64,000 bases of DNA from an uncultured delta proteobacterium (GTDB taxonomy: Bacteria; Desulfobacterota; Syntrophorhabdia; Syntrophorhabdales; WCHB1-27), in contig CAVQYC010000001.1 in the NCBI GenBank assembly GCA_963717985.1, forward strand, positions 456,712-520,711. Direction: 5' to 3'. The stretch's first letter is position 1; each line of letters starts with the position of its first letter. Positions 6,188-25,155 of the stretch are shown one piece after another. Under the pieces are notes generated by a model, which saw only the letters and a program-made list of their open reading frames with translations, ran no database searches and was not told the DNA's origin. The position numbers and the translations under genes are program-made.

Positions 6188-6200
6188 AGGAGAAAAGCCA

Positions 6201-8455: not shown

Positions 8456-8488
8456 GTTCCTTCCCTCCATGAGTACATTACTGTATTT

Positions 8489-8862: not shown

Positions 8863-9174
8863 ACACACCTTATACACCACTATCGTGACACAGGTCAAAG
8901 CTCTTTTTCTTCCCCCGTATATCCCCCTGTTTTTACTACGAATATTATTCTCGTGAGGTTTAAGATAAGATAGTCTTGTTGTGATATGTGTTAATTAATA
9001 AACCCAAGGGCAACCCCGCCATGCGCCCGATCTATCGGGATGGCTTTCCAATTTCCCCGCCGTGGCCGTCACGGAAATTGTACTCATCGCTGCCGCGAGA
9101 AAAGGCCCTCTTTTCCCCTTCCTTTTTGAGGGGAAAAAATCTTTAGGGAAGGACCTTCCGCCCTTCCGCGTCCA

Positions 9175-9248
9175 CCCGCCCCCGTGCTCCTTACGTCCGC
9201 GCGGGAGGCGGGAGGGACGCCGTCTCACCGATTGCGGACCTCGGACCC
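9175..9248. repeat. Conserved inter-island cis motif, copy 1
   Basis: CCCGCCCCCGTGCTCCTTACGTCCGCGCGGGAGGCGGGAG; its reverse complement matches 56160-56199 at 38/40. Confidence 0.85.
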
Positions 9249-9408
9249 CATTTTGTACCACCGCCTTCGTTTAACATTGATTTCATTTATGGACAGACCG
9301 TATTATTTTGTCCAGTGTTCCTATCTGTAGCGTTATTGGAATGCGCCTACTATATATTGATTGAATCACAATCTTGAAATATTTCGCTGAGCCTGATATG
9401 ATTGGTTC

Positions 9409-9831
9409 GTGCCGTCGCCAAAGTGGGCTACCCAACAAATTATTATGTTAATTTTCTGCATAGTCGTTGTAGGAGGTATAATTTTTTTAAAGCTTTTTGG
9501 TGACGAGTTCGGGATTCATACACAAGGTTATCCCCTTTATTACGATCTGCCCCTCGGGGAGCAAGCTGACGTTCGCTTCACCTACGAGTGTCCGACGCGA
9601 CAGGACTACGGCGAGGGGTCTCCTTCCAGATTTGGGGTCCACTCATCATATATCCCCCCCGGAATGCACGAGAGTCCCGGAGGGCTTACCGGGACCCCCA
9701 CCGAAACCGGCGAATGGTACATAAGAGTGTCAGTCACTTGTGATTATAAGTCGCTTTATGATGGCAGTTGGTGGTACAACCGGCCCCCCTACGAAACCGG
9801 AGCGAAAATACGAGTACACCTACGGCGATAA
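9409..9831 (+). CDS. Membrane-anchored protein with putative Ig (He_PIG-like) domain
   Basis: N-terminal hydrophobic anchor; IPPGM..GLTGTPTETGEWYIRVSV resembles putative Ig repeats. Confidence 0.55.
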   Translation: MPSPKWATQQIIMLIFCIVVVGGIIFLKLFGDEFGIHTQGYPLYYDLPLGEQADVRFTYECPTRQDYGEGSPSRFGVHSSYIPPGMHESPGGLTGTPTETGEWYIRVSVTCDYKSLYDGSWWYNRPPYETGAKIRVHLRR

Positions 9832-9907
9832 AAGGCTGCTGAAGCGCGTTGTTTCGAGGAGGCTGCTGGGTCTTGCACTACAACTGTAAATTTTCGATTC
9901 GTTCTCC

Positions 9908-11125
9908 CTATGGAGGCTTGCCCACAATACCGGCACGCACCGGCCAGAGGCAGAATCTATTATCATCGTTTTTTTTGTTACGAGCACTACTAAGGTTAGC
10001 GATATGGTTCATGCCCAGGCTGCGGCCGAGCCCCCAACTGCCGTCTTTCATATTGACGACCCATGCGAGGTCGTGCGACCTGTAGGGAGAAGACGACCAG
10101 TAGAAATCGGGCTGAACATTTATGAATGGATGGCCCTGCGACAGGGCGCACTGATGCATAGAATAATCGATCAGGCTTCTAAGCTCCTTAACGTTCGGCA
10201 GCCGCCAGTCGTTGTGCCCGTAGGTTCCTGAGCCGGAATTAATAGAGGTTACGTATTTTAGCGCTCCTACCCACGTCTTATAACTACCCCATAATAAACT
10301 CTGGTCGTTTTCCGTGACGTTTCCATCTTTTGTCCATATGAGACCGGTCAGGTTATCCGTTACAGTGCCATCGTCATTATCGATAAATCGTGGATCGGGC
10401 CAGGGAACTCCTGCTTGTATATGGCCGTCGTCACCTGAATGGCGGCTTTGCGTCTGACCCGTGGCCCAAATAGCCGCGTTACGAAATGCCCCGGATTGTC
10501 CATCACGAACAGGCCAAACTTTTGAGTCGCACGCCCTAGGATCAGGTTTCTTGATCGCCTTCCATCTGGCTTCTGCGAGGCCGCCCATGGTAAAGTTAAT
10601 GCGCCACGCGAAGGAGCTATTGATTGCATGCGTTGTAGAGGACCAATAGCCCGTAAAAGGCAACGATCCAACATTTCTAAATATCTGCGGCACACTGCGC
10701 AATGGGCTTATGAGATCCGGATTTCTATTGGACGGCCCGAAGATAACGAGGCTTTCCAACTCGTTAATATTTGGCAGCCGCCAGTCGTTATGACCAAGGT
10801 GATTCACGGCATTTAAACAAGTTACATAATTAAAAGCATTCTCCCAACCCATCACTCCACCCGCGCACGACCCGGCCGTCAACACTTTATGCGCGGACGA
10901 CCACCAGTGTCGCTTTTGCATCGGCTCGTATGACCCGACCATAGGCGTACCGGCATTTTTTGTCCATATGAGACCGGTCAGGTTATCCGTTACAGTGCCA
11001 TCGCCATTATCGATAAATCGTGGATCGGGCCAGGGAACTCCTGCTTGTATATGGCCGTCGTCCCCTTCCTTATTGCCAAGGAATCCTAAAGTCCATCCCG
11101 TCCGCGGCAGGTTTACAGTTCCCAT
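9908..11125 (-). CDS. Tandem DUF1566 (Lcl C-terminal) domain protein
   Basis: Two copies of RFIDN.DGTVTDNLTGLIWTK ... HNDWRLPN..EL.SL ... YWSS. Confidence 0.88.
   Translation of the reverse strand: MGTVNLPRTGWTLGFLGNKEGDDGHIQAGVPWPDPRFIDNGDGTVTDNLTGLIWTKNAGTPMVGSYEPMQKRHWWSSAHKVLTAGSCAGGVMGWENAFNYVTCLNAVNHLGHNDWRLPNINELESLVIFGPSNRNPDLISPLRSVPQIFRNVGSLPFTGYWSSTTHAINSSFAWRINFTMGGLAEARWKAIKKPDPRACDSKVWPVRDGQSGAFRNAAIWATGQTQSRHSGDDGHIQAGVPWPDPRFIDNDDGTVTDNLTGLIWTKDGNVTENDQSLLWGSYKTWVGALKYVTSINSGSGTYGHNDWRLPNVKELRSLIDYSMHQCALSQGHPFINVQPDFYWSSSPYRSHDLAWVVNMKDGSWGLGRSLGMNHIANLSSARNKKNDDNRFCLWPVRAGIVGKPP
10328..11062. repeat. 105 bp intragenic direct repeat (10328-10432 and 10958-11062)
   Basis: Compared by eye: one mismatch (tcgtcatt vs tcgccatt). 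Confidence 0.9.
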
Positions 11126-11368
11126 GTCTGATCCCCCCCTTTGTTCTTTGTGTGGAAGAATCTTCGTTTCATTTTTTAGATAAGAGAAGGCAATATGGCA
11201 ACGTAAGCAACGTCCCTATTATACACAATTTCTCGCCCAGTATCACAGGCCCTCCTCTTTTCGATTTCCATAATGCGACAAAATGTATTATTTTGTCCAT
11301 ATTATGAAAACGCAACATAGGAAAGACGCGAGTTTGCGCGGTCTTTCCGACCCTGAAACCTGGACAAA

Positions 11369-11440
11369 ATGAACGATGACAGAAAACACCTTACCCAGCG
11401 GGAAGTGGAAAAAGTCATCAAGGCCGTCAAAGCAAGCCGT
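11369..11440 (+). pseudogene. N-terminal remnant of a FimB/FimE-like tyrosine recombinase
   Basis: DDRKHLTQREVEKVIKAVKASR resembles this family's N-terminus; similarity stops at the motif copy at 11437. Confidence 0.55.
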
Positions 11441-11494
11441 GCCCATCCTTCCGCGCGGGAGACGGGAGGTACGTCGCTTGCGGACTTCGGACCC
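11437..11494. repeat. Conserved inter-island cis motif, copy 2 (diverged)
   Basis: CCGTGC..TCCGCGCGGGAGACGGGAGG..TTGCGGACTTCGGACCC aligns with 9182-9248. Confidence 0.75.
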
Positions 11495-11833
11495 GTAAAG
11501 GGCGCTTTCTCCGGCACTCGGAAGAAAAGTTTTGACACAGACAAAAAATTGTGGTCTCTATAGGTTGCAGGCATTGTTACCTGCCATAATAAATAATTCA
11601 GGAGCTAGTCTCCTGCAGGGTTAGACCCTGCCTACAATTAACTTCACACCATTTAGGGCTTTGCCCTCCCACAGCTAAATACCTTCATTTTCAGGAATTT
11701 ATTTCCTGCACCCGACACAACTTAGGGGCCGCCCCTGCCTTTATCAACCGAGACTTGCCCTTGCCGTCTAACATAGCGGCAAGGGCAAGCAGAGTGACAA
11801 GGAGGTCGCAGGCAATGGCAAGTAGGTGTCAGA

Positions 11834-12007
11834 ATGAATAAGCGCTTCTTACGCCTCCCGGAAGTCCTTGAGCGAATCCCTGTGTCGAAGAGCACGTGGT
11901 GGGCCGGTGTCAAGAAGGGCATTTTCCCAAAGTCAATCAAATTGTCGGCCCGAATCACCGTGTGGCTGGAAGAGGATATTGAAAAGATCGGCGTTGAAAC
12001 AAAATAG
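11834..12007 (+). CDS. alpA: AlpA-family excisionase/regulator (57 aa, below ORF-track cutoff)
   Basis: Own translation: MNKRFLRLPEVLERIPVSKSTWWAGVKKGIFPKSIKLSARITVWLEEDIEKIGVETK. Confidence 0.92.
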   Translation: MNKRFLRLPEVLERIPVSKSTWWAGVKKGIFPKSIKLSARITVWLEEDIEKIGVETK

Positions 12008-12056
12008 TCCTTTCAAAACCGCCCGATATTTCATACAATAGCGCCAAGGGGTAGGT

Positions 12057-13679
12057 ATGGAAAATACTCTCTACTACGGCGATAATCTGGACATTCTGCG
12101 CCGCTACCTGAAAGACGAATCGGTTGACCTCGTTTACCTGGACCCGCCGTTCAATTCCAATGCGAACTATAATGTGCTTTTTGCAGAAAAGGACGGACAT
12201 AAGGCCGCGAGTCAGATTCGGGCTTTTTCGGATACCTGGACATGGACACAGGAAAGCGAATCCGCCTATGCAGAGGTTGTGACGGCGGGCGGGCGGGTGG
12301 CCGATTGTTTACGGGCTTTCAGGACGTTCTTGGGCGAATGCGACATGTTAGCCTATCTCGTTATGATGGCTCCGCGCCTTGTGGAACTGCGGCGGACATT
12401 GAAGCCCACGGGCAGCATATACCTGCACTGCGATCCGACAGCGAGCCACTACCTGAAATTGCTTATGGATGCTGTTTTCGGTCCTCAAAACTTCAGAAAT
12501 GAAATCGTCTGGAAGCGAACCAGCGCCCATAGCAGCGCCAAAAGATACGGTCCTGTCCACGACACGCTGCTCTTATTTTCTAAGACAGATGGGTACACCT
12601 GGAACCAATCCTTTCAAGCCTACGACGAATACTACCTTGACCAATTCTACACGCACATTGACGACAAGGGTAGACGATGGACAAGGTCCGATCTCACCGG
12701 GGCCGGTGTCCGGCATGGTGAAACCGGAAAGCCGTGGCGCGGCATTGACGTAACTGCGAAGGGCCGTCACTGGATGGTGCCTACTGCCGAGTTAGACAAG
12801 CTCGATGCTCAGGGTAAGATTCACTGGCCCGAAAGGGAGGGTGGTATGCCAAGGCTCAAGCGCTATGTTGATGAGCAACCGGGCGTTCCGCTGCAAGACG
12901 TGTGGACGGACATTCCGCCGATGCATAATCTATCCCGTGAACGCCTCGGCTACCCCACGCAGAAACCCGAAGACTTGTTGGAACGAATGATTCAGGCGAG
13001 CAGCAACGAAGGGGACACAATCATGGACCCCTTCTGCGGCTGCGGGACCGCTATCGCCGGTGCCCAAAAACTCGGCCGCCGATGGATAGGGATAGATATA
13101 ACGCACCTTGCAATAACGCTTATCAAGCACCGCCTTAAGGATACCTTCGGCGAAGCTGCCGCATACAAGGTGATCGGGGAACCGGTAAGCGTGCCTGACG
13201 CCGAGGCGCTTGCGGCTTCAGACCCGTATCAATTTCAATGGTGGACCTTGGGCCTTGTGGGGGCGCGGCCCGTCGAACAAAAGAAGGGAGCGGACAGGGG
13301 TATTGACGGGCGGATCGTCTTTCAGGGCGATAAGGCCGGAGTATTTGAAAGCGTAATTCTATCAGTGAAGGCGGGTAAGACCGGCCCGTCGCACGTCCGA
13401 GACTTAAAAGGCGTCTTGGAGCGGGAAAAAGCAGCCATAGGCGCTTTGATTACAATGCAAGAGCCGACTGCTGAAATGAAGACCGAGGCTGTTATGGCGG
13501 GATTCTATCAGTCCGAGACGTGGGGGCGGAAATATCCGCGAATGCAACTCTTGACAGTGGCCGAATTATTGGCCGGGAAGAAGATCGAAATGCCCCCGAT
13601 CCGGCAAGTGGGTGCTACGTTCAAGAAAGCGCCCAAAGCGACGGGGACACAGGGCGAACAGGTTAAACTGCCAATGTGA
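12057..13679 (+). CDS. N6/N4 DNA methyltransferase (beta class) fused to a C-terminal Mrr-like endonuclease domain
   Basis: DPPF, YPTQKP, DPFCGCGT; C-term GADRGIDG..LSVKAG..HVRDLKGVLEREKAAIGALIT. Confidence 0.88.
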   Translation: MENTLYYGDNLDILRRYLKDESVDLVYLDPPFNSNANYNVLFAEKDGHKAASQIRAFSDTWTWTQESESAYAEVVTAGGRVADCLRAFRTFLGECDMLAYLVMMAPRLVELRRTLKPTGSIYLHCDPTASHYLKLLMDAVFGPQNFRNEIVWKRTSAHSSAKRYGPVHDTLLLFSKTDGYTWNQSFQAYDEYYLDQFYTHIDDKGRRWTRSDLTGAGVRHGETGKPWRGIDVTAKGRHWMVPTAELDKLDAQGKIHWPEREGGMPRLKRYVDEQPGVPLQDVWTDIPPMHNLSRERLGYPTQKPEDLLERMIQASSNEGDTIMDPFCGCGTAIAGAQKLGRRWIGIDITHLAITLIKHRLKDTFGEAAAYKVIGEPVSVPDAEALAASDPYQFQWWTLGLVGARPVEQKKGADRGIDGRIVFQGDKAGVFESVILSVKAGKTGPSHVRDLKGVLEREKAAIGALITMQEPTAEMKTEAVMAGFYQSETWGRKYPRMQLLTVAELLAGKKIEMPPIRQVGATFKKAPKATGTQGEQVKLPM

Positions 13680-13845
13680 AGGCCAATCTTGTTCATCAGG
13701 TTCGCATACTTTCCATGGCACAGGGAGGCTCTCTCTTCCACCTAAATAGCGTGTCGAATTCAAACTTGTGAATCGCGGATTGCCGCAGAAAGACGACAAC
13801 AAAGGCGTTAGCCGCCGACGTATCGAGTTTACTTGGATGCAGTAA

Positions 13846-14970
13846 TTAACTGCATATCTCCTTCACTCTGTTTAGAGCTTCGTGCGGACACGAAAAGACC
13901 TCACACCCATATTTCTTGTCAAAAGCAACATGACTTCGGGTAACCAAGTCCCTCAGACTGTGCTCAGTGAAGAAGAAATCAAAATAGGGCAAGGCAGTTT
14001 GGGCATGTCTGAAATCATGCAAATCGTTTCTCTTGAATTTCCTTTTGGTATCCCATCGCACTAGAGCATGTAACGCAGAGCCGATTACGAGTGTCGGAAA
14101 ATAGGTCTGTAGCTTATTCTTGCGGAACAGATTATAAACTGCATTTGCAATCTGTTTCCCCGCCTTACTTGATTTCACTTCGCTCGGTGTCGGTTCACAC
14201 CCTTGCTGCCCCTTAAACAGATAAACCATGGTATCTTCAAAAGTCGGTATGCACAGATCGAGTACCCCTGCAAGCTCTGATAGGCAAAGCTGTTTGAAAG
14301 AATTATTTTCATGTGAATGTCTGATCTTTCCCTCGTTCAAAATATCCGACAAGTCGTTCAGCCGAGGCATTTTAGAAATTGCCTCTTTCCCCATTATTTC
14401 TATCATTTGGGATAATGAGATCGTCCACATTTGATCGAAGAAAGCCTTCTGAAGCACCAGCTCTTCTTGAGGAAAGAATGGCGTAGATGTCGGGTGGACA
14501 GCGCCGAGCACATAGGCCAACTTCGTCCAGACTAATACGTCTGGCGAATGCACTGAATCTTCTCCTCCAATGGTTCTTCGGATAAAGTAGAGCGTTTCGA
14601 AGCCAATTCGTTCTTGCTCCGACAATATTGATATACCTCTTGATAGGATGTCAATGAGATTGCTTGTTTCAGAAAGCGTCTTTGTGTCTGACTGGTTCAA
14701 TACCTCTGCAAAAATATCTTCGCTTATAGGGCACACCATTCTCCCGTCTTCGACTCCGTATCGCAGCACCGCCAGGAGTTCTGTAATGTCCCCGTCTCTT
14801 TGTCTTCCCATTGCAGCGTCCCGCAGAAGCAACCAATACTTCGTATCAAGATATATTTTCTTGCACTTCGCCATTTCGCGGCCGAGTGCTATCCTAACCT
14901 CCCTGGTATACGTTTCTAAGGTCTTTTCAGGCTCCGATCTGTGTTTTTCAAAAGTATCGATCAGTTTCAT
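13846..14970 (-). CDS. Hypothetical protein with PIN-like acidic motifs
   Basis: IYLDTKYW, CPISEDIFAEV, NDLHDFRHAQTALPYFDFFFTE; fold is inference. Confidence 0.55.
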   Translation of the reverse strand: MKLIDTFEKHRSEPEKTLETYTREVRIALGREMAKCKKIYLDTKYWLLLRDAAMGRQRDGDITELLAVLRYGVEDGRMVCPISEDIFAEVLNQSDTKTLSETSNLIDILSRGISILSEQERIGFETLYFIRRTIGGEDSVHSPDVLVWTKLAYVLGAVHPTSTPFFPQEELVLQKAFFDQMWTISLSQMIEIMGKEAISKMPRLNDLSDILNEGKIRHSHENNSFKQLCLSELAGVLDLCIPTFEDTMVYLFKGQQGCEPTPSEVKSSKAGKQIANAVYNLFRKNKLQTYFPTLVIGSALHALVRWDTKRKFKRNDLHDFRHAQTALPYFDFFFTEHSLRDLVTRSHVAFDKKYGCEVFSCPHEALNRVKEICS

Positions 14971-15304
14971 GTCTTCTACAATTAACGGACGCGGTAACGG
15001 GGCCATTGACGGTGGACAACTTCCGTTCCGGCCGCATCAATTCGAGAGCAGCTTTTTATCTGCCCCTCAATGATTACCACTTGTTTTCCTTTTCTTCAAG
15101 AAGAATCTCGGAATCCTCCATTCCGTTCCAGTGAGTAATAACCGGATGAACCATTAATCCTTTTTGCGGTTGATTGGGCGTAAGCGCGGGGACATATCTT
15201 GCAGGTTTGTTGGGGCTATGATTGCGATTTTGGGGGCTGTTGTGGGGGCGTGCCAGATTTTGCGAGGTTTGATAATCCCATGATAACGCTATGTTAGCAG
15301 CTCA

Positions 15305-15330
15305 GTTCGATGGACGCCGCCCCACCATTT
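15305..15330 (+). repeat. Degenerate ssrA 3'-end copy (attR of element 1 / attL of element 2)
   Basis: GTTCGATggacGCCGCC-CCACCATTT vs ssrA GTTCGATtcccGCCGCCtCCACCATTT. Confidence 0.7.
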
Positions 15331-15764
15331 TTTTATTGATATTATTAGCATTATTTCCTCCTTGTTCGTTCCAGGGCCGTTCCAGGCCTTGTGAACTTTA
15401 TGATTCTCTTTTCAAGCAGTGCTTTCCTGGCCGATACCTCTACCTTTGCATACCTCTTCACTGATTCCCGCCGCGCGTGGTCCGTCGCTATCTGAACCTC
15501 GTCGATTGAATAGCCGTACTCATTCACAAGTTGAGAGCATGAACTGTGCTTGACCCCAGGATAAAGCGCTATCGATTCTCCTACCTTCTTGCAAGCCTCT
15601 TTCCATATCTTTGATAGCGCCTTGCCCGTGTATGGCTGTCCCGGCCTTTCGCCGTTCGGATTGACGAAGAAATACGGCGAGACGATGGACAACGATTGTT
15701 GTTTTGCCTTTTCAGTCTCGTAGTGCGGAATAAACTCGTCGACCATAGGGACGTAATGAATTTC

Positions 15765-17605
15765 TGATTCCTGAGAAGAAAGTGCCCTTTCTGAAAGGAT
15801 CAATCGTCACCATCGTTGTGTTACCACCATCGTGAAGATGAACTTCTTAGGCAAGGACACGCCAACTATTTCGGTCCAGAATACCTTCATGCTAATACAA
15901 AGAGACGATATGCAGCCTTCCAGGGTCTTTTTCAAGGCCCAAGGGGCCTTGGCCCACCTCTTTATGTTGCAGGCGATCAGTTTGCATGCAACGGCAAAGC
16001 ATACTTTTGCCAGCCGACGCACCCGAAGTCTGCCGATTCCGTGAGATCGTTTCAATTCGGAGTTTGTTGCTTCGATCCCTGCACGAATCTTGTACCGGTC
16101 TTTCCATTCAGTGGTCTGCTGGATGGCATACATCTGATCCCGCAGGCGAAGCTCGGCAGTGATCTCCAGACGAAAGTCCCCGACCGTTTCACGGGCCTGG
16201 CAGCCTTTGTTGCGGTGGTTCGGAGCTCTTACCGGGCACCTATCGAGCATCGTGCACGATCGACAGGCGTTTCCGTCAAAGATCGCATGGAGAGAACGAC
16301 GGGTGCTGTTGTTGCCGCTCAGTATGCGATGGTCTATGGGACTATTACCCATGGGACATCGGGTCACCAAACCTTCCGAGTCGAAGGAGAAAAGGTCTCT
16401 GCCCACGATATCGTCGGAGAGCCTGCTGCGGTTGACGGGCGTGACGAATTCGATACCTTGCTCTATGACCTTTGCCGCTGAAGGGACAGACGGATAACCG
16501 CCGTCGGCAAAGAGCGCTTCGGGCTTCAACCCGGCAGCCTCCAAACGTTCGATAACAGGAAGGGCCTTGCCGATGTCGGATCTGGCGGCGCCATGCACCT
16601 CATAGTCTGTGATGATTTCGGTTTTTCCGGTATTCTTGCACGTCTCCGTAACATGAAGGCTGTATCCCGGCCCTTTATGTCCGCAGGACGCATCCGGGTC
16701 GTAAGGGGATTGAAGGGTTGCTCCTTCACTCTTTTTCTTCACCTGGACCTTGGACGATTCTTGGTCTGAGGTGAATTCGCATTGTTCGGAGAAAAGGCGC
16801 TTCAACAATTGGTACGGCTCATTGCCTGTAAGTTCATTATCCTTCTCGAAGATAACAATAAGGTCATAGAGATACTGCGCCAGTTCTTCCAGCTTGATCT
16901 TCTGCTCGGCCGGACCCAATCCGAACCAACCCTCGGGTTCGCTTGAATGCCATTCCTGAATTGCCTTCGGGACTCTCGACAATTGATCTTCATTCAGACT
17001 CTTGAGAAACTGGGTGAGCGTATTCGAGAATAGAGCCAATCTGCCTCGTACACGAATGTTCGAGATTATGTGGGTAGAATCAAGCCGCTGGCTGGAAGAC
17101 GAGAGGCCAAGTTTGCTTATCGCTGAATCTCTGATATTGTCGAATACATGGCGGACCAGCTTCATCTCCGGGTCTTTGGCGGCCAATCGCCTGCGGAACT
17201 CTACAAGAGAGCGACGGGACAAATAATCTTCCTCATCGCTGACATCCAAGGCGTATCGCCACCGGGTGTCAAAGCTGAAGGTGTCGAGGGCCTCCTGGTC
17301 ACTCAAGTTGCTCCACTCCTGAAGGAGACACAAACCCAAAAGACGCGCAACGCTGAAATTAGGCCGGCCTGTTGTGCCGTACAGAATCGCATAGCGATCT
17401 TCGTTCCTGAACAGGATTGGAAATACCTCGCCTCTAAACAGGTGAGCCCATGAAGACTCAAGACGGTTCCGCAAAGAGGGGGACACCTGCGTCTCCACGC
17501 CGAGTAGTTTTTGTTGAGGTGGTGTTTTCTTATACATGACATATTCTATCATTGTATGTAATTAAATACAATAGTTATTTGTGGAGAGTTACTTCTCAGG
17601 AATCA
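15765..17605 (-). mobile_element. IS copy A, 1841 bp, IS1182/IS5-like DDE element
   Basis: 14 bp TIR TGATTCCTGAGAAG; target duplication TTTC at 15761-15764 and 17606-17609. Confidence 0.92.
15807..17552 (-). CDS. DDE transposase (DUF772-like N-terminus), 581 aa
   Basis: GRPN..LSDQEA..WRYAL..SLVEFRRRL, LDSTHI, ADGGY, YKIRAGIEATNSELKR. Confidence 0.92.
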   Translation of the reverse strand: MIEYVMYKKTPPQQKLLGVETQVSPSLRNRLESSWAHLFRGEVFPILFRNEDRYAILYGTTGRPNFSVARLLGLCLLQEWSNLSDQEALDTFSFDTRWRYALDVSDEEDYLSRRSLVEFRRRLAAKDPEMKLVRHVFDNIRDSAISKLGLSSSSQRLDSTHIISNIRVRGRLALFSNTLTQFLKSLNEDQLSRVPKAIQEWHSSEPEGWFGLGPAEQKIKLEELAQYLYDLIVIFEKDNELTGNEPYQLLKRLFSEQCEFTSDQESSKVQVKKKSEGATLQSPYDPDASCGHKGPGYSLHVTETCKNTGKTEIITDYEVHGAARSDIGKALPVIERLEAAGLKPEALFADGGYPSVPSAAKVIEQGIEFVTPVNRSRLSDDIVGRDLFSFDSEGLVTRCPMGNSPIDHRILSGNNSTRRSLHAIFDGNACRSCTMLDRCPVRAPNHRNKGCQARETVGDFRLEITAELRLRDQMYAIQQTTEWKDRYKIRAGIEATNSELKRSHGIGRLRVRRLAKVCFAVACKLIACNIKRWAKAPWALKKTLEGCISSLCISMKVFWTEIVGVSLPKKFIFTMVVTQRW

Positions 17606-18422
17606 TTTCTCCTGTCTTGGTCCTATCAATCAACTGTCTGTCAGAAAATGAGCGGTGAATGGTGAATATTTCTCCGTCAAAATCGATCTTATGCAGGGAT
17701 GCCGCCTCACAAGGCCGCCGAAGATGGAATTTCAGCCACCAGATAATAGGTTGGTGTTCTGCGGGAATAGCCTCGATAACGGGCCGCTGCCTGTCCTCTG
17801 GCAGCCATACGATCGGCGTATCCGTGATATTGTATGCCTTCCTCTTAGGGAACGGCGGGACCACGGGAATTCGCTCCGATCTCCACGCAAAGTCGAGACA
17901 GGCATGAAGGCAATACATGACGTTAAGCTTTCCCTTTCCTTCCCGGTTGATGCTGTTCAGAATTCGCATCAGCGTGTCGTAGCGGACCTCATGAAGACGA
18001 ATACGCTCATTCTCGAAGAACGGTATCAGATAGTTCTCGATGCTGCCCCGATAATCCTTGTAAGTGGCGGGGGCCAGGGTCGGCTTCACGGTTTCAAGCC
18101 ACTCCTTGAGATAGTCCGACACTTTGCACGGAAGCTCCGTGTACTCCTCGATCCGGAAAACGCCTTTTTCAACGTCCGCTTGCATACAGGACAGAAGCTT
18201 TTCGGCCATCCTGCGATCATAGAGCAATTCGCCTTTGTAGTGATATACCTTGTACGTCTTCTTATGCGCGGGATGGTACCAGGCCACATAATACCTCTTC
18301 ACGTGCTCCGCATAGCCTATGGTCCCTTTCATACAAAAACCCCCAGGAATGAATTTACCTGGAGAAATTATATTGACCTGAAAGGGAGCGGTCAACGCTT
18401 TTGCCTTTTATCCTTTGTCTCT

Positions 18423-18686
18423 TTAATCCTTCAATATGTCCCGATATGACCTGTTCTCATTCTTCAACGGCTTTTTGCCGAGCTTGGCCCGCAACTTGTT
18501 CACCGTGGGAAGCATAGGCTCATCGAAGCTGATGTCTCTCAAGAACTGCGCCATCAATTCTATGACCTTCGATCTGGACAATTTGTCATCCTCCGACCCT
18601 TTGCTTATCTCCGTCAGCGTGTCCCAACACTCGTTGCTCAGGCTCATCACCCGTTGCGGCCTCACCCTCTTTTTCGCTGTTCCCAT
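18423..18686 (-). CDS. Ribbon-helix-helix protein upstream of the integrase
   Basis: QRVMSLSNECWDTLTEISK..LSRSKVIELM. Confidence 0.65.
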   Translation of the reverse strand: MGTAKKRVRPQRVMSLSNECWDTLTEISKGSEDDKLSRSKVIELMAQFLRDISFDEPMLPTVNKLRAKLGKKPLKNENRSYRDILKD

Positions 18687-18731
18687 CTTTTTCTCCTTTC
18701 GGAATGTTTCTTCCCGTACCCTCAGTGCAAC

Positions 18732-18776
18732 TACACTCTATATGAAGTGTACTTACACTGTCAAGCAAAAAGTGTA
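18732..18776 (-). promoter_or_regulatory. Promoter of the RHH-integrase operon with paired TACACT/AGTGTA operator-like repeats
   Basis: TTGACA at 18764-18759; TACACT at 18732 and 18754, AGTGTA at 18746 and 18771. Confidence 0.55.
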
Positions 18777-19166
18777 ACGACACCAAATTTATCGTTGACG
18801 AGATACGGCGATCAGAGTATGAGACCGTAGCGAGGCCAATTTCTACGCCATGATCAGACCCATGTCATAGAAATTGTAATATCCCTGCCGGGAGAAAGAG
18901 CCGCTTGAATTTTCCCCCTTAATTGAGGGGAAAATTTTATAGAAGGGGCGACGTGCCCAGGTTCGCTAAGCTCCTCCGTACTTCCTGGAAGGCGCAGCTG
19001 AATGTTTTTCTTGCTGTACAGGGCTGGTGATGGTAATCTTTGACACGTGTTGGGGGGTGAAGAAGGTGTTTCGTGGGGAGGGCTGGCCAAGTCACGTTAA
19101 TCAGCCTATCCCCCGACGCGCGCCGATGCCGAGAGTGGTTGTGCCAGAATACAGAAGGAGGCAAGT

Positions 19167-19406
19167 ATGGCAGAAATAGCTTTTTATACGGTGGCACCGA
19201 AGGAGGGAGAGCACCCTTTTCCTCCTTACCTTCATATCTACCTTTCCGCATACGCCGATGATCCCGATTGGGGGCCGCTCATGAGTCCCAACCTGATGAC
19301 AGATCGGGAAATCGATGAAACAATCGATTATCTGATAACGCAGTTAGAAAGCGTCAGAGAAAAAGCAAAACTGGAATTAAAGAAGGTGAAGCAACGAAAG
19401 AAATGA
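19167..19406 (+). CDS. Hypothetical protein (79 aa)
   Basis: SD AGGAGG, plausible composition with C-terminal coiled-coil. Confidence 0.6.
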   Translation: MAEIAFYTVAPKEGEHPFPPYLHIYLSAYADDPDWGPLMSPNLMTDREIDETIDYLITQLESVREKAKLELKKVKQRKK

Positions 19407-19496
19407 AACATGTTCTGGAAGAGGTGTGAGGGGGTTTTCAATCGAAACCCCGAGGCGCGGGAAGTACAGTTAAAACGCCCCTGCTTTGTGCAACCG

Positions 19497-20207
19497 TCAT
19501 AAAGGCTTGTTAGCCATTTCGGTGAGCCGCTTGCTCAGCTCTTCAAGACCGGCGGTGAATGCTTTCTCCTCTTCGCGGGTGGGCGCAATCCCGTACAAAG
19601 ACAAAGCACAAACGTTCTTTGCATTCACCCTAACAGCGCCGGACAAAGGGACGACTCTGAGAACGGTATGGAGGTCTTTGGCGTTCCCGTGAACAATCGC
19701 TGAGACCTCTTTTCCAAAGACCCATGCCTGTACATCGCCAATCTTTTTGAATTGCCCGTGGGCCAGAAGATATTTATGGATGCCCCGAGATCTCTGTGTG
19801 CCCTGGTCCCAAAGCTCCGAATCAGTGGGCGAGGAGGCCTCATAGCCGGTCGCCTGGTAAAGTAAGGAATCGGCGAGAAGAGAGGCTAATTCTTTATGGC
19901 CGCAGTAGGAAAAAACGGAGTCGAAATAGATGCACAATTCTAAATCGAAAATGCAAAGTGCGAGAAGGCGGTCTTTCTGTGGCGAAAAGGATGTTTTAGT
20001 GAGGGTACTGAGTAAGTACGTCAAGCGGGTCTTTTGAAGGAACGAGGAGACGATTTCTACCCCGGTTTGGGCATTGACATAGAGTTGATCTCCGAGAGCC
20101 GGTAAGGCATTTACTAAAAAAGCAACCTTACCGTCCAACGGCCCATAGCGATTCAGAAGATATTCTAAAGCGCGGTTACCTGGTCGCCTTGCGTTATTGG
20201 TGGTCAT
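19497..20207 (-). CDS. Hypothetical protein (236 aa)
   Basis: Long ORF with no competing gene; no motif recognised. Confidence 0.6.
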   Translation of the reverse strand: MTTNNARRPGNRALEYLLNRYGPLDGKVAFLVNALPALGDQLYVNAQTGVEIVSSFLQKTRLTYLLSTLTKTSFSPQKDRLLALCIFDLELCIYFDSVFSYCGHKELASLLADSLLYQATGYEASSPTDSELWDQGTQRSRGIHKYLLAHGQFKKIGDVQAWVFGKEVSAIVHGNAKDLHTVLRVVPLSGAVRVNAKNVCALSLYGIAPTREEEKAFTAGLEELSKRLTEMANKPL

Positions 20208-20540
20208 AAGTGTAATTATGATACCACTTACGGACCGGAAATACAGCCGAAAAACTCATGATGGGGTACCATAATGCCCCCTCCCGTTCGCCGGGCTTTG
20301 TAGGGCCTCCTGTGCGCTCGATTTTGCCGATGCTCGGTGAAGACCGTCCTCGCGATGTAACCCGGGCGGTAATTCGAGAAAATGACACAATTTTGTTGAG
20401 TTTCAGGTTCCTGCCACCTTTCAGGTGGTATCCCTCGCGTCGCTTGGCAAGGCAGGTCCGCGGCTTTGTAGGTGTAGCAAGTAATATGTCCCTTGATTTT
20501 GCCCTACAACGCAATGTTGCAATGGTGCGCTTTGAGACAT

Positions 20541-22381
20541 TGATTCCTGAGAAGTAACTCCCCACAAATAACTATTGTATTTAATTACATACAATGATAG
20601 AATATGTCATGTATAAGAAAACACCACCTCAACAAAAACTACTCGGCGTGGAGACGCAGGTGTCCCCCTCTTTGCGGAACCGTCTTGAGTCTTCATGGGC
20701 TCACCTGTTTAGAGGCGAGGTATTTCCAATCCTGTTCAGGAACGAAGATCGCTATGCGATTCTGTACGGCACAACAGGCCGGCCTAATTTCAGCGTTGCG
20801 CGTCTTTTGGGTTTGTGTCTCCTTCAGGAGTGGAGCAACTTGAGTGACCAGGAGGCCCTCGACACCTTCAGCTTTGACACCCGGTGGCGATACGCCTTGG
20901 ATGTCAGCGATGAGGAAGATTATTTGTCCCGTCGCTCTCTTGTAGAGTTCCGCAGGCGATTGGCCGCCAAAGACCCGGAGATGAAGCTGGTCCGCCATGT
21001 ATTCGACAATATCAGAGATTCAGCGATAAGCAAACTTGGCCTCTCGTCTTCCAGCCAGCGGCTTGATTCTACCCACATAATCTCGAACATTCGTGTACGA
21101 GGCAGATTGGCTCTATTCTCGAATACGCTCACCCAGTTTCTCAAGAGTCTGAATGAAGATCAATTGTCGAGAGTCCCGAAGGCAATTCAGGAATGGCATT
21201 CAAGCGAACCCGAGGGTTGGTTCGGATTGGGTCCGGCCGAGCAGAAGATCAAGCTGGAAGAACTGGCGCAGTATCTCTATGACCTTATTGTTATCTTCGA
21301 GAAGGATAATGAACTTACAGGCAATGAGCCGTACCAATTGTTGAAGCGCCTTTTCTCCGAACAATGCGAATTCACCTCAGACCAAGAATCGTCCAAGGTC
21401 CAGGTGAAGAAAAAGAGTGAAGGAGCAACCCTTCAATCCCCTTACGACCCGGATGCGTCCTGCGGACATAAAGGGCCGGGATACAGCCTTCATGTTACGG
21501 AGACGTGCAAGAATACCGGAAAAACCGAAATCATCACAGACTATGAGGTGCATGGCGCCGCCAGATCCGACATCGGCAAGGCCCTTCCTGTTATCGAACG
21601 TTTGGAGGCTGCCGGGTTGAAGCCCGAAGCGCTCTTTGCCGACGGCGGTTATCCGTCTGTCCCTTCAGCGGCAAAGGTCATAGAGCAAGGTATCGAATTC
21701 GTCACGCCCGTCAACCGCAGCAGGCTCTCCGACGATATCGTGGGCAGAGACCTTTTCTCCTTCGACTCGGAAGGTTTGGTGACCCGATGTCCCATGGGTA
21801 ATAGTCCCATAGACCATCGCATACTGAGCGGCAACAACAGCACCCGTCGTTCTCTCCATGCGATCTTTGACGGAAACGCCTGTCGATCGTGCACGATGCT
21901 CGATAGGTGCCCGGTAAGAGCTCCGAACCACCGCAACAAAGGCTGCCAGGCCCGTGAAACGGTCGGGGACTTTCGTCTGGAGATCACTGCCGAGCTTCGC
22001 CTGCGGGATCAGATGTATGCCATCCAGCAGACCACTGAATGGAAGGACCGGTACAAGATTCGTGCAGGGATCGAAGCAACGAACTCCGAACTGAAACGAG
22101 CGCACGGAATCGGCAGACTTCGGGTGCGCCGGCTGGCAAAAGTATGCTTTGCCGTGGCATGCAAGCTGATCGCCTGCAACATAAAGAGGTGGGCCAAGGC
22201 CCCTTGGGCCTTGAAAAAGACCCTGGAAGGCTGCATATCGTCTCTTTGTATTAGCATGAAGGTATTCTGGACCGAAATAGTTGGCGTGTCCTTGCCTAAG
22301 AAGTTCATCTTCACGATGGTGGTAACACAACGATGGTGACGATTGATCCTTTCAGAAAGGGCACTTTCTTCTCAGGAATCA
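20541..22381 (+). mobile_element. IS copy B, 1841 bp, inverted relative to copy A
   Basis: Same TIR; target duplication GACAT at 20536-20540 and 22382-22386. Confidence 0.92.
20594..22339 (+). CDS. DDE transposase, 581 aa, one residue different from copy A
   Basis: KRAHG vs KRSHG; otherwise identical translation. Confidence 0.92.
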   Translation: MIEYVMYKKTPPQQKLLGVETQVSPSLRNRLESSWAHLFRGEVFPILFRNEDRYAILYGTTGRPNFSVARLLGLCLLQEWSNLSDQEALDTFSFDTRWRYALDVSDEEDYLSRRSLVEFRRRLAAKDPEMKLVRHVFDNIRDSAISKLGLSSSSQRLDSTHIISNIRVRGRLALFSNTLTQFLKSLNEDQLSRVPKAIQEWHSSEPEGWFGLGPAEQKIKLEELAQYLYDLIVIFEKDNELTGNEPYQLLKRLFSEQCEFTSDQESSKVQVKKKSEGATLQSPYDPDASCGHKGPGYSLHVTETCKNTGKTEIITDYEVHGAARSDIGKALPVIERLEAAGLKPEALFADGGYPSVPSAAKVIEQGIEFVTPVNRSRLSDDIVGRDLFSFDSEGLVTRCPMGNSPIDHRILSGNNSTRRSLHAIFDGNACRSCTMLDRCPVRAPNHRNKGCQARETVGDFRLEITAELRLRDQMYAIQQTTEWKDRYKIRAGIEATNSELKRAHGIGRLRVRRLAKVCFAVACKLIACNIKRWAKAPWALKKTLEGCISSLCISMKVFWTEIVGVSLPKKFIFTMVVTQRW

Positions 22382-22605
22382 GACATTCAAAAACGTCCCG
22401 CCCCTGATATCCCTTCCCCTCGCACTCCCCTTCAAGATAGTGATAACAGCCCCCTTCGCACCCGAATTCTTCCGCTTGTACATCGCCCAGGCACTCGTCT
22501 AAGAAGGCCCCGAAGTGTTCTATGACCCTGCTTTTGCCCTGGACCCACCATTCCGGCAATTGCTGTGCCGCTCGTACAGCCTTCTTCCGCTCAAGCCTTT
22601 CTTTC

Positions 22606-23661
22606 TTACGTTTCTTCATAATGGCCCCCATAATCGGTATTTTCATAGGACTTCTCGCCGTGCCCTTCTTCAAATTCCTCGACGCTCATTCTCTTTTCGC
22701 TTCCGAACGGTAAGAATCTCTTATCCCATTCCGTCCCGGTTCCCATGATATCCGTACCCACACACTCCCAATTCCCTTTGACGAACGGTTCAGTCACCGG
22801 AATTTCTTTCTCGCCGATCTCCACGGCCTCACACTGCTTTTCTTCCTTCTTCCTCTTGCCGTAAGCCACCCGGTAGAGAGGCACCCCGAAGAAATAGGCA
22901 TAGGCATAGAGAAGATGGACTTTATTGCCATCGACGCAGGTAACGGCCTTCTTCAGATAGCTTGAAAGGTAGCCCGCAACTTGGCCCCCCGTTCTCACTG
23001 TGACCTTGATCCCTTGTGGTTTTGACCATCCCCACAGCCTTACTATGTCGTCTATATCGGCGATCCAACCGCCCTTGAAATAGAAGTGGATATGAGGAAG
23101 GCCCGATTCCCTGTAAGGCTCTATGGCGAAGCCTCTATAACTCCACTCCCATCCTTTTCGCTTGTAGAAGGACCGTAGGCGCTTCAGGAAGGCGCTTATG
23201 TCCGTTCCGATGCGGAACATGAGGAATCCATAGAAGTCGCCGCCCCATCCTGATTCTTCCATGAGATCGTACATACGCCGCTGATCGTATCCTATTGCGA
23301 GCATCGTCACCTTGGTTTCATCCTTCACGCTATCGTGTATGTCCCAATACCGTTTCTTGTACCAGTCATCCCTTTTCGTGTTCCACCTGGAGCAGATCGG
23401 CATCCGCTTGTACTCCCCGCTATCCATGTTCCTGAAGACCAGCCCCACGTTGCTGTAATAATCGACGGTAGAATAGAACATCGTCGCCACATCCTGCTTG
23501 TCGAACAGGTATGAGTATTTATCCACTATTTCGGCTCTCTTCTTTTTCCCCCGTACTTCTGTTCTTATTGTGACGTGTTTATCAGACCTTGGCCGTGTCT
23601 CCACCCAGGGTTGAATATCGTTCCTTGCCCGCCAGAGTGAATAATCCCGACTTTCGCTCAT
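22606..23661 (-). CDS. HUH rolling-circle replication initiator (two-tyrosine type)
   Basis: EPYRESGLPHIHFY (HUH) and VAGYLSSYLKK (YxxxY). Confidence 0.75.
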   Translation of the reverse strand: MSESRDYSLWRARNDIQPWVETRPRSDKHVTIRTEVRGKKKRAEIVDKYSYLFDKQDVATMFYSTVDYYSNVGLVFRNMDSGEYKRMPICSRWNTKRDDWYKKRYWDIHDSVKDETKVTMLAIGYDQRRMYDLMEESGWGGDFYGFLMFRIGTDISAFLKRLRSFYKRKGWEWSYRGFAIEPYRESGLPHIHFYFKGGWIADIDDIVRLWGWSKPQGIKVTVRTGGQVAGYLSSYLKKAVTCVDGNKVHLLYAYAYFFGVPLYRVAYGKRKKEEKQCEAVEIGEKEIPVTEPFVKGNWECVGTDIMGTGTEWDKRFLPFGSEKRMSVEEFEEGHGEKSYENTDYGGHYEET

Positions 23662-23798
23662 CGGTGTAATTCATTACCTCTGTTACAAGCACAGAGGAGC
23701 CGACCAGCGCATGCTTGTGCTCGACCTCCACTACTCCGTTCTGTCACCCTCGTCGGGAAGTGATGTGGGGAAAGGTTTGTGCGCGGCGCAAGCCCCGA

Positions 23799-23835
23799 CC
23801 CCCCGCCGTGCTCCTCCGTCCGCGCGGCAGGAGGG
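23799..23835. repeat. Conserved inter-island cis motif, copy 3, ~140 bp upstream of rep
   Basis: CCGTGCTCCTCCGTCCGCGCGGCAGGAGGG shares the CCGTGCTCCT and GTCCGCGCGG blocks. Confidence 0.75.
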
Positions 23836-24167
23836 ACCGGAACTTGCGCCGGAATTTGCTTTGAGAACGTCGGGAAGTCCCCCGACGTAGGCCCTATATG
23901 CCCTTTACAATGGCCCGAGGAAGCTTTATACTCACTCTTAGGTGATACGGTCACGTTTCACCACCCCCGCCGCCGGAGACGCCCGCCAAAGCTCTTCCGG
24001 TGGCTTTTTTATTCGTCTTGAATTAGCTGTTGCTCAAAACGAAAAGCCGGCATGATAGCCGGCTTAGGGGTGGTGGTTTTTTCAGCACTCGTGCAGATTC
24101 GTTCCAGGATTTAAAGAAGCGTCTAAAACCTCCTATTGTTTCAGCTACTTGGACGGGGGGGCAGGTT

Positions 24168-24183
24168 TTCGATTCCCGCCGCC
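24168..24183 (+). repeat. ssrA 3'-end copy (attR of element 2)
   Basis: TTCGATTCCCGCCGCC identical to 6000-6015, preceded by GGACG. Confidence 0.8.
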
Positions 24184-24314
24184 CCATAAATGAGTTACAA
24201 TGTTTTAGGGGTCATGGATACTGTCCGTATAGTGTCGGTGACCCTTTTCCCAGGGCGCGATCCTTCGTCCTAGAGGACCCGCGGCTGCGGATGAATGCAC
24301 CCTGCCGGGCGCAC

Positions 24315-24348
24315 AAAAAAGCAGGCAGAGACCAAGGTCTCTGCCTGC
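24315..24348 (-). terminator. Intrinsic terminator of the PEP-CTERM gene
   Basis: GCAGGCAGAGACC-nn-GGTCTCTGCCTGC stem followed by T6 on the minus strand. Confidence 0.8.
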
Positions 24349-24370
24349 TGAATAAAGCGAGTGGTTGGTC

Positions 24371-24961
24371 TTACCCCTTAAGTCTTTTCCTGATGCCCAC
24401 AAGGCCAAGGAGGCCGGGGGCAAGAAGCAGTAGTGTCGGGGGAACGGGAACCGGGCTGTAGGTAGCAACGAACCCTACCTTTGTCGGGTCGATGTTCCCC
24501 GTGAGAACGATATTCACAAAGAAGGTGTCACCGGCGACAAGCGCGGCTCCTCCGGGAGCGAAAAACTGCACCTCCGTGGGCGAAACCGAGACCATGGTCC
24601 AGAGTGCACCGGCTGTGGTGTTGCTGAAGCGTGTCGTGAGATAGGAGCCAAACGGGTCATTCCCCGGGGTAGGAGTCAAATCGATCGCTACTCCCGCGGG
24701 CACGGTAAATTGAGTGCCGAGCACGAAGTCGAAATCCCGCGTCGCCGGGCCCGTCCAGGTCAACGTCCCCGCGAGGAGGCCCGGGATACCCCACGCTGAA
24801 GTTCCCCCAGGGCCTTGGGTATTCCAAGACCACGCGTTGCCGTACGTGTCCACTCCCGTGGCTCCAAGGCCCACGAAGCTGACATCGGCCTTTGCAGAGG
24901 CGGCGAAAACCATGATCACCATTGCCAGAACGATCGTTGTAGCCACTAACATTCTTTTCAT
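24371..24961 (-). CDS. PEP-CTERM/VPLPA-CTERM exosortase-sorted surface protein
   Basis: Signal peptide ending ASAKA; C-term VPVPPTLLLLAPGLLGLVGIRKRLKG. Confidence 0.88.
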   Translation of the reverse strand: MKRMLVATTIVLAMVIMVFAASAKADVSFVGLGATGVDTYGNAWSWNTQGPGGTSAWGIPGLLAGTLTWTGPATRDFDFVLGTQFTVPAGVAIDLTPTPGNDPFGSYLTTRFSNTTAGALWTMVSVSPTEVQFFAPGGAALVAGDTFFVNIVLTGNIDPTKVGFVATYSPVPVPPTLLLLAPGLLGLVGIRKRLKG

Positions 24962-25059
24962 AAGCTTTTCTCCTTTTGATTTTGACTAACGCCGGAACAT
25001 GAACTGCCTGTTGAGACTCCCCACCCCCTTTCGCTTTCATGCGTGAAAGCGTTTTTTTT

Positions 25060-25155
25060 GGCAGCCCGGCCGTCTGTCTGCAGTGCTCACGAGAAGCGTA
25101 TCAGAGACCCGCTGGCTTTCCGTCCCACCCTTACGAGTGGTTTGGCTTTGTCAGA
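25060..25155 (-). ncRNA. GEMM-I (cyclic di-GMP-I class) riboswitch
   Basis: Minus strand GACAAAGCCAAACCACTCGTAAGGGTGGGACGGAAAGCCAGCGGGTCTCTG..CAGACGGCCGGGCTGCC. Confidence 0.88.

Follow-up and report, generated by a model that had tools for sequence, protein, structure and literature searches.

The stretch of DNA analysed here (the window) comprises 64,000 nucleotides of contig CAVQYC010000001.1, from an uncultured delta proteobacterium, and contains at ~15328-24167 an 8.8-kb element lying between decayed repeats of the 3' end of ssrA, the transfer-messenger RNA (tmRNA) gene. A first-pass annotation of the letters alone had described this element as a replicon of about 5.2 kb with six open reading frames (ORFs) left once its two insertion sequence (IS) copies are removed. 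We reconstructed the IS-free form in silico by deleting each IS copy together with one target duplication, and obtained, in agreement with that description, an element of 5149 bp with six credible ORFs. These encode a rolling-circle replication initiator (Rep), a small Cys/His-rich protein, a 236-aa cargo protein, two proteins of 79 and 87 aa, and a tyrosine integrase (Table 1).

Table 1. Features of the element in the window.
Feature	Position	Strand	Remarks
attL, left attachment repeat	15306..15327	+	displaced, diverged ssrA 3' end (TTCGATGGACGCCGCCCCACCA); junction between island 1 and the element
Integrase, C-terminal part	15351..15764	-	catalytic domain, box II and Tyr; PF00589, E 8e-7
IS1182-family IS, copy 1	15765..17605	-	1841 bp; 581-aa DDE transposase; target duplication TTTC; interrupts the integrase gene
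Integrase, N-terminal part	17610..18395	-	SAM-like core-binding domain; PF14659, E 1e-8
87-aa ORF	18423..18686	-	directly upstream of int; ribbon-helix-helix (RHH)-like pattern (beta strand RVMSLS, two helices, SRS cap)
79-aa ORF	19167..19406	+	sole gene on the opposite strand
236-aa cargo protein	19497..20207	-	all-alpha, soluble
Small Cys/His-rich ORF, severed end	20504..20540	-	last 8 codons and stop, separated by IS copy 2
IS1182-family IS, copy 2	20541..22381	+	1841 bp; target duplication GACAT
Small Cys/His-rich ORF, main part	22382..22673	-	basic N-terminus; probable start MGAIMKK at 22631; overlap with the end of rep
Rep	22606..23661	-	351 aa; two-tyrosine HUH rolling-circle initiator of the PF23343 (REP_ORF2-G2P) type
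Conserved 30-nt block, TGTGCTTGTAACAGAGGTAATGAATTACAC	23664..23693	-	candidate double-strand origin; 2 nt separate it from the rep start codon
GC-rich imperfect palindrome around CCGCGCGG	23784..23838		120-175 nt upstream of rep; 93% identity with L007
attR, right attachment repeat	24168..24186	+	remnant, original ssrA 3' end

The assignment of Rep to the two-tyrosine HUH initiators, already made in the first-pass annotation, was borne out by an alignment of 28 relatives. In the motif P-H190-I-H192-F the second histidine is invariant and H190 is conserved in at least 90% of the sequences, and in the motif G-Y231-LSS-Y235-LK-K238 both tyrosines are invariant and the lysine nearly so. All 28 relatives match PF23343 (best E 2.4e-14), the ORF2/G2P replication domain of plectroviruses and inoviruses, which also occurs in microvirus Reps, and precomputed PF23343 matches are listed for 16 of the 18 close homologues. 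Phage_GPA is matched in addition by four of the 28 and RepSA, weakly, by three, and none of them matches Rep_trans, Rep_2 or Viral_Rep. The Rep family is rare (18 close proteins in 5.8 billion, 69 representative clusters in 1.8 billion). When 50,697 phage records were searched by tblastn, Rep gave one weak match, to a microvirus Rep, and its distant relative P0030 gave none in the phage records; a profile search of PDB sequences found no match. Compared with its 93%-identical orthologue in locus L007, from a Syntrophaceae metagenome-assembled genome (MAG), rep shows a dS of 0.49 and a dN/dS of 0.06, and is therefore maintained by strong purifying selection.

When the DNA 5' of rep is aligned, the switch in conservation is sharp: further upstream the sequence is unconserved, and then the 30-nt block begins. 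The family version of the block, TGTGCTTGTAAnAGAGGTAATGAATTACAC, is near-invariant and lies 2-4 nt before the rep start across lineages whose Reps are 52-93% identical; in the window the block occurs once. In phiX174 and pC194 the two-tyrosine Rep cuts its origin at CTTG/ATA, and by analogy we propose the block as a candidate double-strand origin, which would be nicked after CTTG (CTTG/TA). Its GCTTGTA part forms the loop of a hairpin in the window, L007 and L002, with compensatory changes in the stem. A hairpin as the basis of the origin was nevertheless set aside, since it is missing in L016, L005 and L018, and the linear block alone is relied on here.

Copies of the GC-rich palindrome are found elsewhere in the window, at 56161-56192, before a second rep gene and in the same orientation relative to it, and twice (9175-9248 and 11437-11494) in the neighbouring island described below as island 1. 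Possible roles for it are those of a cis site related to Rep or of a single-strand origin, or it may be a repeat of the whole genome. The second Rep (55974-57381) also belongs to PF23343, is very divergent (E 3e-9) and is followed by a Cys-rich ORF of 106 aa; ACTTGATTATA stands ~15 nt after the GC-rich motif shared by the two loci. An IS4-like transposase abuts it (IS 57439-59073), and no integrase is adjacent. In its core this protein shares 33% identity with Reps of inoviruses ('bajarodino virus'), the match covering 99% of the query, and it also matches microvirus VP4 and the Spiroplasma SVGII3 rep.

At the other end of the element, the two parts of the integrase rejoin in frame when the IS is removed, giving a protein of 399 aa that matches the phrog_1 integrase profile (E 4e-26); the first reading of the locus had likewise named an integrase. 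Of the catalytic residues R...HxxR...H...Y of tyrosine recombinases, the first arginine (in HLRRPCE) and the final histidine and tyrosine (in DHARRESVKRY) are present, and box II has a lysine in place of its arginine. The two IS copies form a 1.85-kb inverted repeat, differ at 9 positions and have the terminal inverted repeats TGATTCCTGAGAAG. With the IS1182 family they share the transposase domains DDE_Tnp_1_6 and DUF772, terminal inverted repeats and short target duplications, and IS1182 is the top NCBIfam match (E 4e-60); the score of 204 bits, however, lies below the curated cut-off of 270 bits, so both copies are a divergent member. The present copy of the element is crippled by these insertions, having been hit in the integrase and at the end of the small Cys/His-rich ORF.

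Activity was assessed on the assembled contigs of eight soil metagenome runs, a data set in which rare variants would be missed. In these contigs the IS has a depth 10-25 times that of its surroundings and of the single-copy element. One contig of run X4 omits exactly the IS and its duplication (15759->17605, 1845 bp); therefore an IS-free integrase allele exists. Contigs of runs X1 and X4 link the right end of the IS to its left end with 4-5 nt between them (CTGC, CAAAA), and such end-to-end joints suggest that the IS is active and transposes through circular or tandem intermediates.

The remaining ORFs are less readily classified. The 87-aa ORF, by its sequence pattern and its position beside int, is a candidate regulator or excision factor, and related loci have ORFs weakly matching RHH profiles in the same position. 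The RHH label given to it in the earlier annotation found no support from profiles: there is no Pfam RHH match at E <= 0.1, the PHROG matches are weak (E 0.01), and an hhalign comparison with the RHH-like ORFs of the family was not significant (probability 0.6%), so that the label is unconfirmed and has the pattern and the position as its basis. For the 79-aa ORF, no match was found in Pfam, PHROGs, NCBIfam or PADLOC, and no counterpart in the related loci. The small Cys/His-rich (Zn-type) ORF, reconstructed at 93-107 aa, has a very basic N-terminus and a pattern, CxxCxH...C...C...HxC, that is conserved in its orthologues in L007, L002 and L018; the L007 orthologue is intact, with 94 aa and 84% identity. 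It matches no database family, and a homologue search returned the query alone.

The 236-aa protein belongs to a small family of 31 homologous clusters, whose members elsewhere lie among toxin-antitoxin and defence genes or beside integrases, never with a Rep and not in phages. Its AlphaFold2 (AF2) model is confident (pLDDT 87.9) and all-helical, and finds no fold match in the PDB or among viral structures; PADLOC does not match the protein either. From its genomic neighbourhoods and its model, we take this ORF to be a mobile accessory gene. A virion protein was considered for it and rejected on the all-alpha model without a viral match and on the homologues in toxin-antitoxin and defence islands, so the possibility, raised at the outset, that the uncharacterised ORFs are virion proteins does not overturn the reading of the element as one without a capsid.

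The claim that the element has no recognisable Zot-like ATPase, coat protein, relaxase or type IV secretion system (T4SS) gene stands: none of these, and no capsid protein, was matched among its ORFs in Pfam, PHROGs, NCBIfam or PADLOC. Zot was likewise not found in the ORFs or gene tables of the relatives examined (Pfam, PHROGs, NCBIfam). A hydropathy scan of all ORFs of at least 25 aa gave only artefacts antisense to, or overlapping, real genes, and no plausible membrane coat protein; there is no ORF or Pfam match corresponding to the microvirus major capsid protein (Phage_F, about 500 aa), the largest uncharacterised ORF being that of 236 aa. An ORF for an FtsK/TcpA-like coupling protein was found in no locus of the family.

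About nine distinct relatives of the element were found in soil, peat and wetland metagenomes and MAGs. They share an architecture of Rep, cargo and integrase, with element sizes of 4-7 kb and most genes co-oriented with rep, and none has virion or transfer genes. Since this compact layout without a virion is seen in ~9 independent relatives, minimality is a trait of the family and not decay of the copy in the window. The Rep module consists of the 30-nt block, rep and often the small Zn-type ORF; the cargo slot is variable (TIR/PDC-S35, AbiJ, Mrr), as is the integrase module, which lies beside a tRNA or tmRNA gene. The integration sites are tRNA-Leu, -Ala, -Ser, -Pro or -Lys genes or the tmRNA gene. 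In the comparison with L007, only the Rep module is homologous to that of the window (90% identity), the cargo and integrase modules being unrelated. To judge from these gene orders, members of the family combine a conserved Rep module with an integrase module that can be exchanged and a cargo slot whose content varies and often resembles defence genes.

The individual loci illustrate this variety (ORFs without a name are given by their length in aa). L002-4 have Rep, 116, 99, 206 (on the minus strand), 105 and Int at tRNA-Leu(GAG), and L002 lies between two copies, about 4.65 kb apart, of a 118-nt direct repeat in which the end of the tRNA-Leu gene is contained. The same tRNA-Leu is used by L016/17, with Rep, 266-300, 213 (a weak TIR match), 100 (RHH-like) and Int. 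L018-20, at tRNA-Ser, have Rep, the small ORF, 376, Mrr_cat, 148 and Int. L007 has Rep, the small ORF, a lipoprotein of 845 aa, an RHH-like ORF, HTH_17 and Int, and no site was found in the locus; its cargo (4818-7355, minus strand) has a Gly-rich linker and an HEMGH metalloprotease-like motif. With this lipoprotein, not all cargo of the family is defence-related. L005, at tRNA-Ala, has Rep, 111, 104 and 72 and no integrase, and L006 has a Rep and a 104-aa ORF near-identical to those of L005, followed by TIR/PDC-S35 cargo (E 7e-76), with no tRNA. A 5.6-kb JGI contig carries Rep, 80, 577, 124, HTH_17 and Int with no site found, and L008 (40% Rep identity) has Rep and AbiJ (E 3e-12), again with no site found. 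Distant relatives are L021 (29% Rep identity), with RHH, Rep and Int at tRNA-Pro, and L023, with RHH, Rep and a fragment of Int at tRNA-Lys. L004 (4236 bp) and L006 had been considered as circular contigs, which was ruled out as their ends do not overlap. We found no description of this family in the literature; compact elements made of Rep and Int are known in principle.

The boundaries of the element in the window follow from the repeats of ssrA. The gene was located by ARAGORN at 5673-6022, and the word at its 3' end, TTCGATTCCCGCCGCCCCA, is repeated downstream at 15306-15324 (3 mismatches) and at 24168-24186 (no mismatch), where 0.04 matches would be expected by chance. Because the word recurs at both repeat positions, ssrA is followed by a tandem array of islands, of which the stretch 15331-24183 is the inner one. 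Both attachment repeats contain TTCGAT and CGCCGCCCCA, and in place of the latter the live ssrA has CGCCGCCTCCA. The right repeat also retains the gene context TGGACG...TTCGATTCCCGCCGCC, and since this context is kept there it is the displaced original 3' end of ssrA. This arrangement fits two successive integrations, in which the element would have entered ssrA first and island 1 later, displacing the element inward. Island 1 (6023-15305) encodes a P4-type integrase (6201-7430; PRK09692, E 5e-82), a DNA methyltransferase of 540 aa (12057-13679) and an orphan ORF of 386 aa (13846-15006), and has no Rep. Just outside the element on its right, a c-di-GMP-I-GGC riboswitch (25056-25155, minus strand), which at 68.8 bits exceeds the gathering score, is located upstream of the gene for a PEP-CTERM protein (24371-24961, minus strand), which ends in a strong terminator at 24320-24349.

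In X9, contigs of related strains part from the window right after the end of the tmRNA gene (window 6020-6090). One X9 contig contains after that end ATAAATGAGTTA, which corresponds to the 12 nt leading from the last base of the right repeat into the right flank, and its sequence ...AAAATAAATGAGTTAATACG resembles the DNA to the right of the right repeat (24186-24203). On this resemblance, the X9 sequence may represent an unoccupied ssrA site in a relative.

Taken together, we read the locus, at a probability of about 0.6, as a compact integrative rolling-circle element that depends on outside help for its spread, in a copy that is now disabled. In its intact form (about 5.15 kb) such an element would reside in a tRNA or tmRNA gene, at the 3' end, and the tyrosine integrase would excise it from there as a circle, probably with the small RHH-like protein acting as directionality factor or repressor. 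The two-tyrosine HUH Rep would then nick the 30-nt block 5' of its own gene, at the proposed CTTG/TA, and Rep-driven rolling-circle replication would yield circular single-stranded DNA (ssDNA) and double-stranded copies. Lacking genes for a coat, for morphogenesis or for transfer, the element would need an outside carrier, either the virion of an ssDNA phage of the inovirus type or a conjugative pore with Rep as the relaxase, and after transfer its own integrase would re-insert it. The slot between the Rep and integrase modules would hold exchangeable, often anti-phage cargo, which presumably repays the host for its upkeep. In the window, the element would have gone first into ssrA, been displaced by the second island, and then been hit twice by a high-copy IS1182-family element. 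The anatomy of the element, the layout of its family, the motifs of Rep and the selection on it, the damage by the IS and the single-copy state are observed; origin and nick site, excision factor, helper dependence and helper identity are the parts of this scheme that we infer, and the two helper routes carry about equal weight. Of the helper-dependent integrative plasmid or phage satellite proposed in the first-pass annotation, the architecture thus holds, and recurs in the ~9 relatives; the activity and the helper are putative.

A number of observations weigh against this interpretation. The Rep of the window matches PF23343, and no other family, at 27.1 bits (E 5e-6), below the gathering cut-off of 27.8, and the fold matches of its AF2 model (pLDDT 83.6) to HUH domains are non-significant (E about 0.2); the top Foldseek match is the origin-binding domain of the adeno-associated virus 2 (AAV2) Rep (probability 0.85, E 0.16), and those to the NS1 proteins of minute virus of mice (MVM) and B19 and to the wheat dwarf virus Rep are not significant either. 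The hairpin at the candidate origin is absent from three of six lineages (L016, L005, L018). Box II of the integrase reads GVKHSSC, with a lysine replacing the arginine found in L002 (ATRHSFG) and L007 (HDLRHTN), and because of this replacement and of the split by the IS the copy in the window is probably immobile now. Several relatives have an integrase that is split, truncated or missing (L018-20, L023, L005), that of L018-20 (about 13333-15810) being split inside the catalytic domain by an unrelated rve-type IS. Integrase loss thus seems recurrent in the family, many copies of which may be dead, with Rep perhaps kept for some other reason. In the eight runs the depth of the element equals that of its flanks (in X1, 6-9 against 6.6 and 6.0), and their contigs show neither a joint of its two ends, as in a circle, nor a bridge across the empty site: the element now behaves as a fixed single-copy chromosomal segment. 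Finally, a tblastn search with Rep found no relative in the 72,556 plasmid records of PLSDB, and a search for related loci with a narrow Rep alignment, which yielded one genome locus (L007), found none among the 2.9 million viral contigs of IMG/VR; therefore no form carried in virions or maintained as an episome has been seen.

Several alternative readings were weighed. It is possible, if well short of probable, that the element is specifically a satellite of an ssDNA phage, of the inovirus type or, less likely, the microvirus type. The coat and export machinery of this helper would package the circular ssDNA made by Rep, integration being left to the element's own integrase instead of Xer. 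PF23343 is the Rep domain of inoviruses, plectroviruses and microviruses, the second Rep of the window matches Reps of inoviruses, microviruses and Spiroplasma, and the single match of the window Rep in the phage collection is to a microvirus. Most genes of the family are co-oriented with rep, the sizes of 4.2-7 kb would suit a filament of flexible length, and defence cargo is typical of phage satellites. In Ff phages gII is followed by gV, an order similar to that of rep and the small basic ORF here, but this ORF is Cys/His-rich and so unlikely to be of the OB-fold gV type. No packaging signal was identified and IMG/VR contains no relative, and although TLCphi and RS1 offer a precedent (PMC6744903), the known filamentous satellites rely on Xer and not on an integrase of their own. 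That the family represents the first ssDNA-phage satellites with their own tyrosine integrase and swappable anti-phage cargo, replicating from a phiX174-like CTTG/TA origin before rep, is a more specific proposal and a doubtful one. On this view they would form a minimal hitcher lineage (Rep, Int and a defence gene) in anaerobic bacteria of soil and peat, with Rep converting the excised island to single-stranded circles fit for packaging.

To be held just as tentatively is the view that the element belongs to the integrative mobilisable elements (IMEs), in which case Rep would double as the relaxase, the 30-nt block the origin of transfer, and the conjugative pore that of a co-resident element. 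Streptococcal IMEs pair a putative relaxase of the rolling-circle replication (RCR) initiator type with a tyrosine integrase and an excisionase (PMC5357655, PMC5704250). In the distant relatives L021 and L023, RHH, Rep and Int are contiguous, and for Rep_trans and Rep_1 initiators a role in transfer as well as in replication is proven (PMC5704250). Yet Rep matches none of Rep_trans, Rep_2 and Viral_Rep, no member of the family has a coupling protein of the TcpA/VirD4 type or an accessory factor, and the cases known so far come from Firmicutes and involve FtsK-like coupling proteins, the hosts here being Gram-negative anaerobes.

The absence from every member of a cis or trans function related to transfer would be expected if the element were a self-contained integrative plasmid, whose Rep serves to prevent loss of the circle and which spreads passively, through vesicles, transformation or generalised transduction. 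There are known cases of replication modules that do no more than stabilise an integrative element after its excision (PMC5704250). We consider this unlikely, as PLSDB holds no episomal relatives, there is no excess depth, and the many tRNA sites and hosts occupied point to efficient horizontal movement.

Very improbable, and disfavoured, is a decayed inovirus or microvirus prophage stripped of its structural genes. The phage-type Rep, the existence of a real inovirus of similar size (5.4 kb) and the visible decay by two IS hits would accord with it, but the same layout without a virion recurs in ~9 independent relatives at different sites, rep is under strong purifying selection, and Zot or coat genes have left no pseudogene traces, the gaps being short and without ORFs for transmembrane proteins; in the real inovirus, Zot is accompanied by a 522-aa protein and small ORFs. 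Transposition of the IS91 type is likewise driven by two-tyrosine HUH proteins, yet a rolling-circle transposon akin to IS91/ISCR or Helitrons, with Rep as its transposase, is scarcely credible and likewise disfavoured, since the relatives group with PF23343 and none of the 28 matches Y2_Tnp (the grouping of Rep with transposases, against which the original reading was to be checked, is thereby rejected), and since the element has direct repeats derived from tRNA or tmRNA genes, a tyrosine integrase and, by depth, a single copy.

The movement of most genomic islands is unexplained, and much current research is directed at minimal 'hitcher' elements, whose genes are limited to what a helper is unable to provide. 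The family described here joins an initiator of the ssDNA-phage type, an integrase directed to tRNA or tmRNA genes and exchangeable, often defensive cargo within 4-7 kb. If active, its members would count among the smallest known replicons that integrate by themselves, and would serve syntrophic anaerobes, a poorly studied group, as a vehicle for defence genes. They would also be a tractable case (one Rep, one 30-nt site, one integrase) for asking whether, in Gram-negative bacteria, phage Reps can support the packaging of satellites or mobilisation by conjugation. The defence cargo makes the family topical; the copy in the window is itself a casualty of IS activity, and the repeated IS hits in integrases, here and in L018-20, illustrate how such elements become fixed in the chromosome.

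Among known systems, the pSAM2-type actinomycete integrative and conjugative elements (AICEs) combine an integrase (with Xis) and a rolling-circle Rep and are integrated at a tRNA gene. Our element resembles them in having Int and a rolling-circle Rep at such a site, and three of the 28 Rep relatives weakly match RepSA; AICEs, however, are larger and encode an FtsK-like Tra protein for conjugation of double-stranded DNA, and Tra is absent from the element. Inoviridae bajarodino virus 41 (PQ006142.1, 5427 bp) is similar in size, in the Pfam domain of its Rep and in its mostly unidirectional genes, and its Rep is 33% identical to the second Rep of the window. In contrast to this virus, which has Zot, the 522-aa protein and several ORFs of 49-100 aa, the element has none of these and carries an integrase and cargo instead.

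TLCphi and RS1 of Vibrio cholerae are integrated satellites of a few kb that encode an HUH initiator (Cri and RstA, respectively) and a small repressor, have no morphogenesis or coat genes, replicate as rolling circles and depend on helper filamentous phages (PMC6744903). Our element likewise retains an HUH Rep in the absence of morphogenesis genes, packaging by a helper being here a candidate route. No sequence similarity was detected between Rep and the Cri of TLCphi, and unlike these satellites, which use dif and the host XerCD, the family has its own tyrosine integrase, tRNA and tmRNA targets and defence-like cargo.

Closest to the element, along with these satellites, are the IMEs of streptococci, 118 of 144 of which encode putative relaxases of the RCR-initiator type in a compact module with an excisionase and a tyrosine integrase; these RCR-type IMEs insert at the 3' ends of tRNA or ribosomal-protein genes, and 83 of the 118 have a TcpA-type coupling protein and 35 have none (PMC5357655, PMC5704250). 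The initiators of such IMEs are of the families Rep_trans, Rep_2, Viral_Rep or PHA00330 (an NCBI CDD model). The family differs from them in its PF23343 Rep, which matches none of Rep_trans, Rep_2 and Viral_Rep, in having no TcpA in any member, and in its hosts, which are Gram-negative anaerobes of soil and peat (a Syntrophaceae MAG, Syntrophorhabdaceae) and not Firmicutes; in the window and its close relatives, moreover, the cargo is placed between rep and int, and there is an extra conserved Cys/His-rich ORF. What the two groups have in common is a small size, a tyrosine integrase, insertion at the 3' ends of tRNA or housekeeping genes, exchangeable passengers without transfer machinery, and an HUH initiator as the single DNA-processing enzyme; a core of Rep, small DNA-binding protein and Int is contiguous in L021 and L023, and is parted by the cargo in the window and its close relatives.

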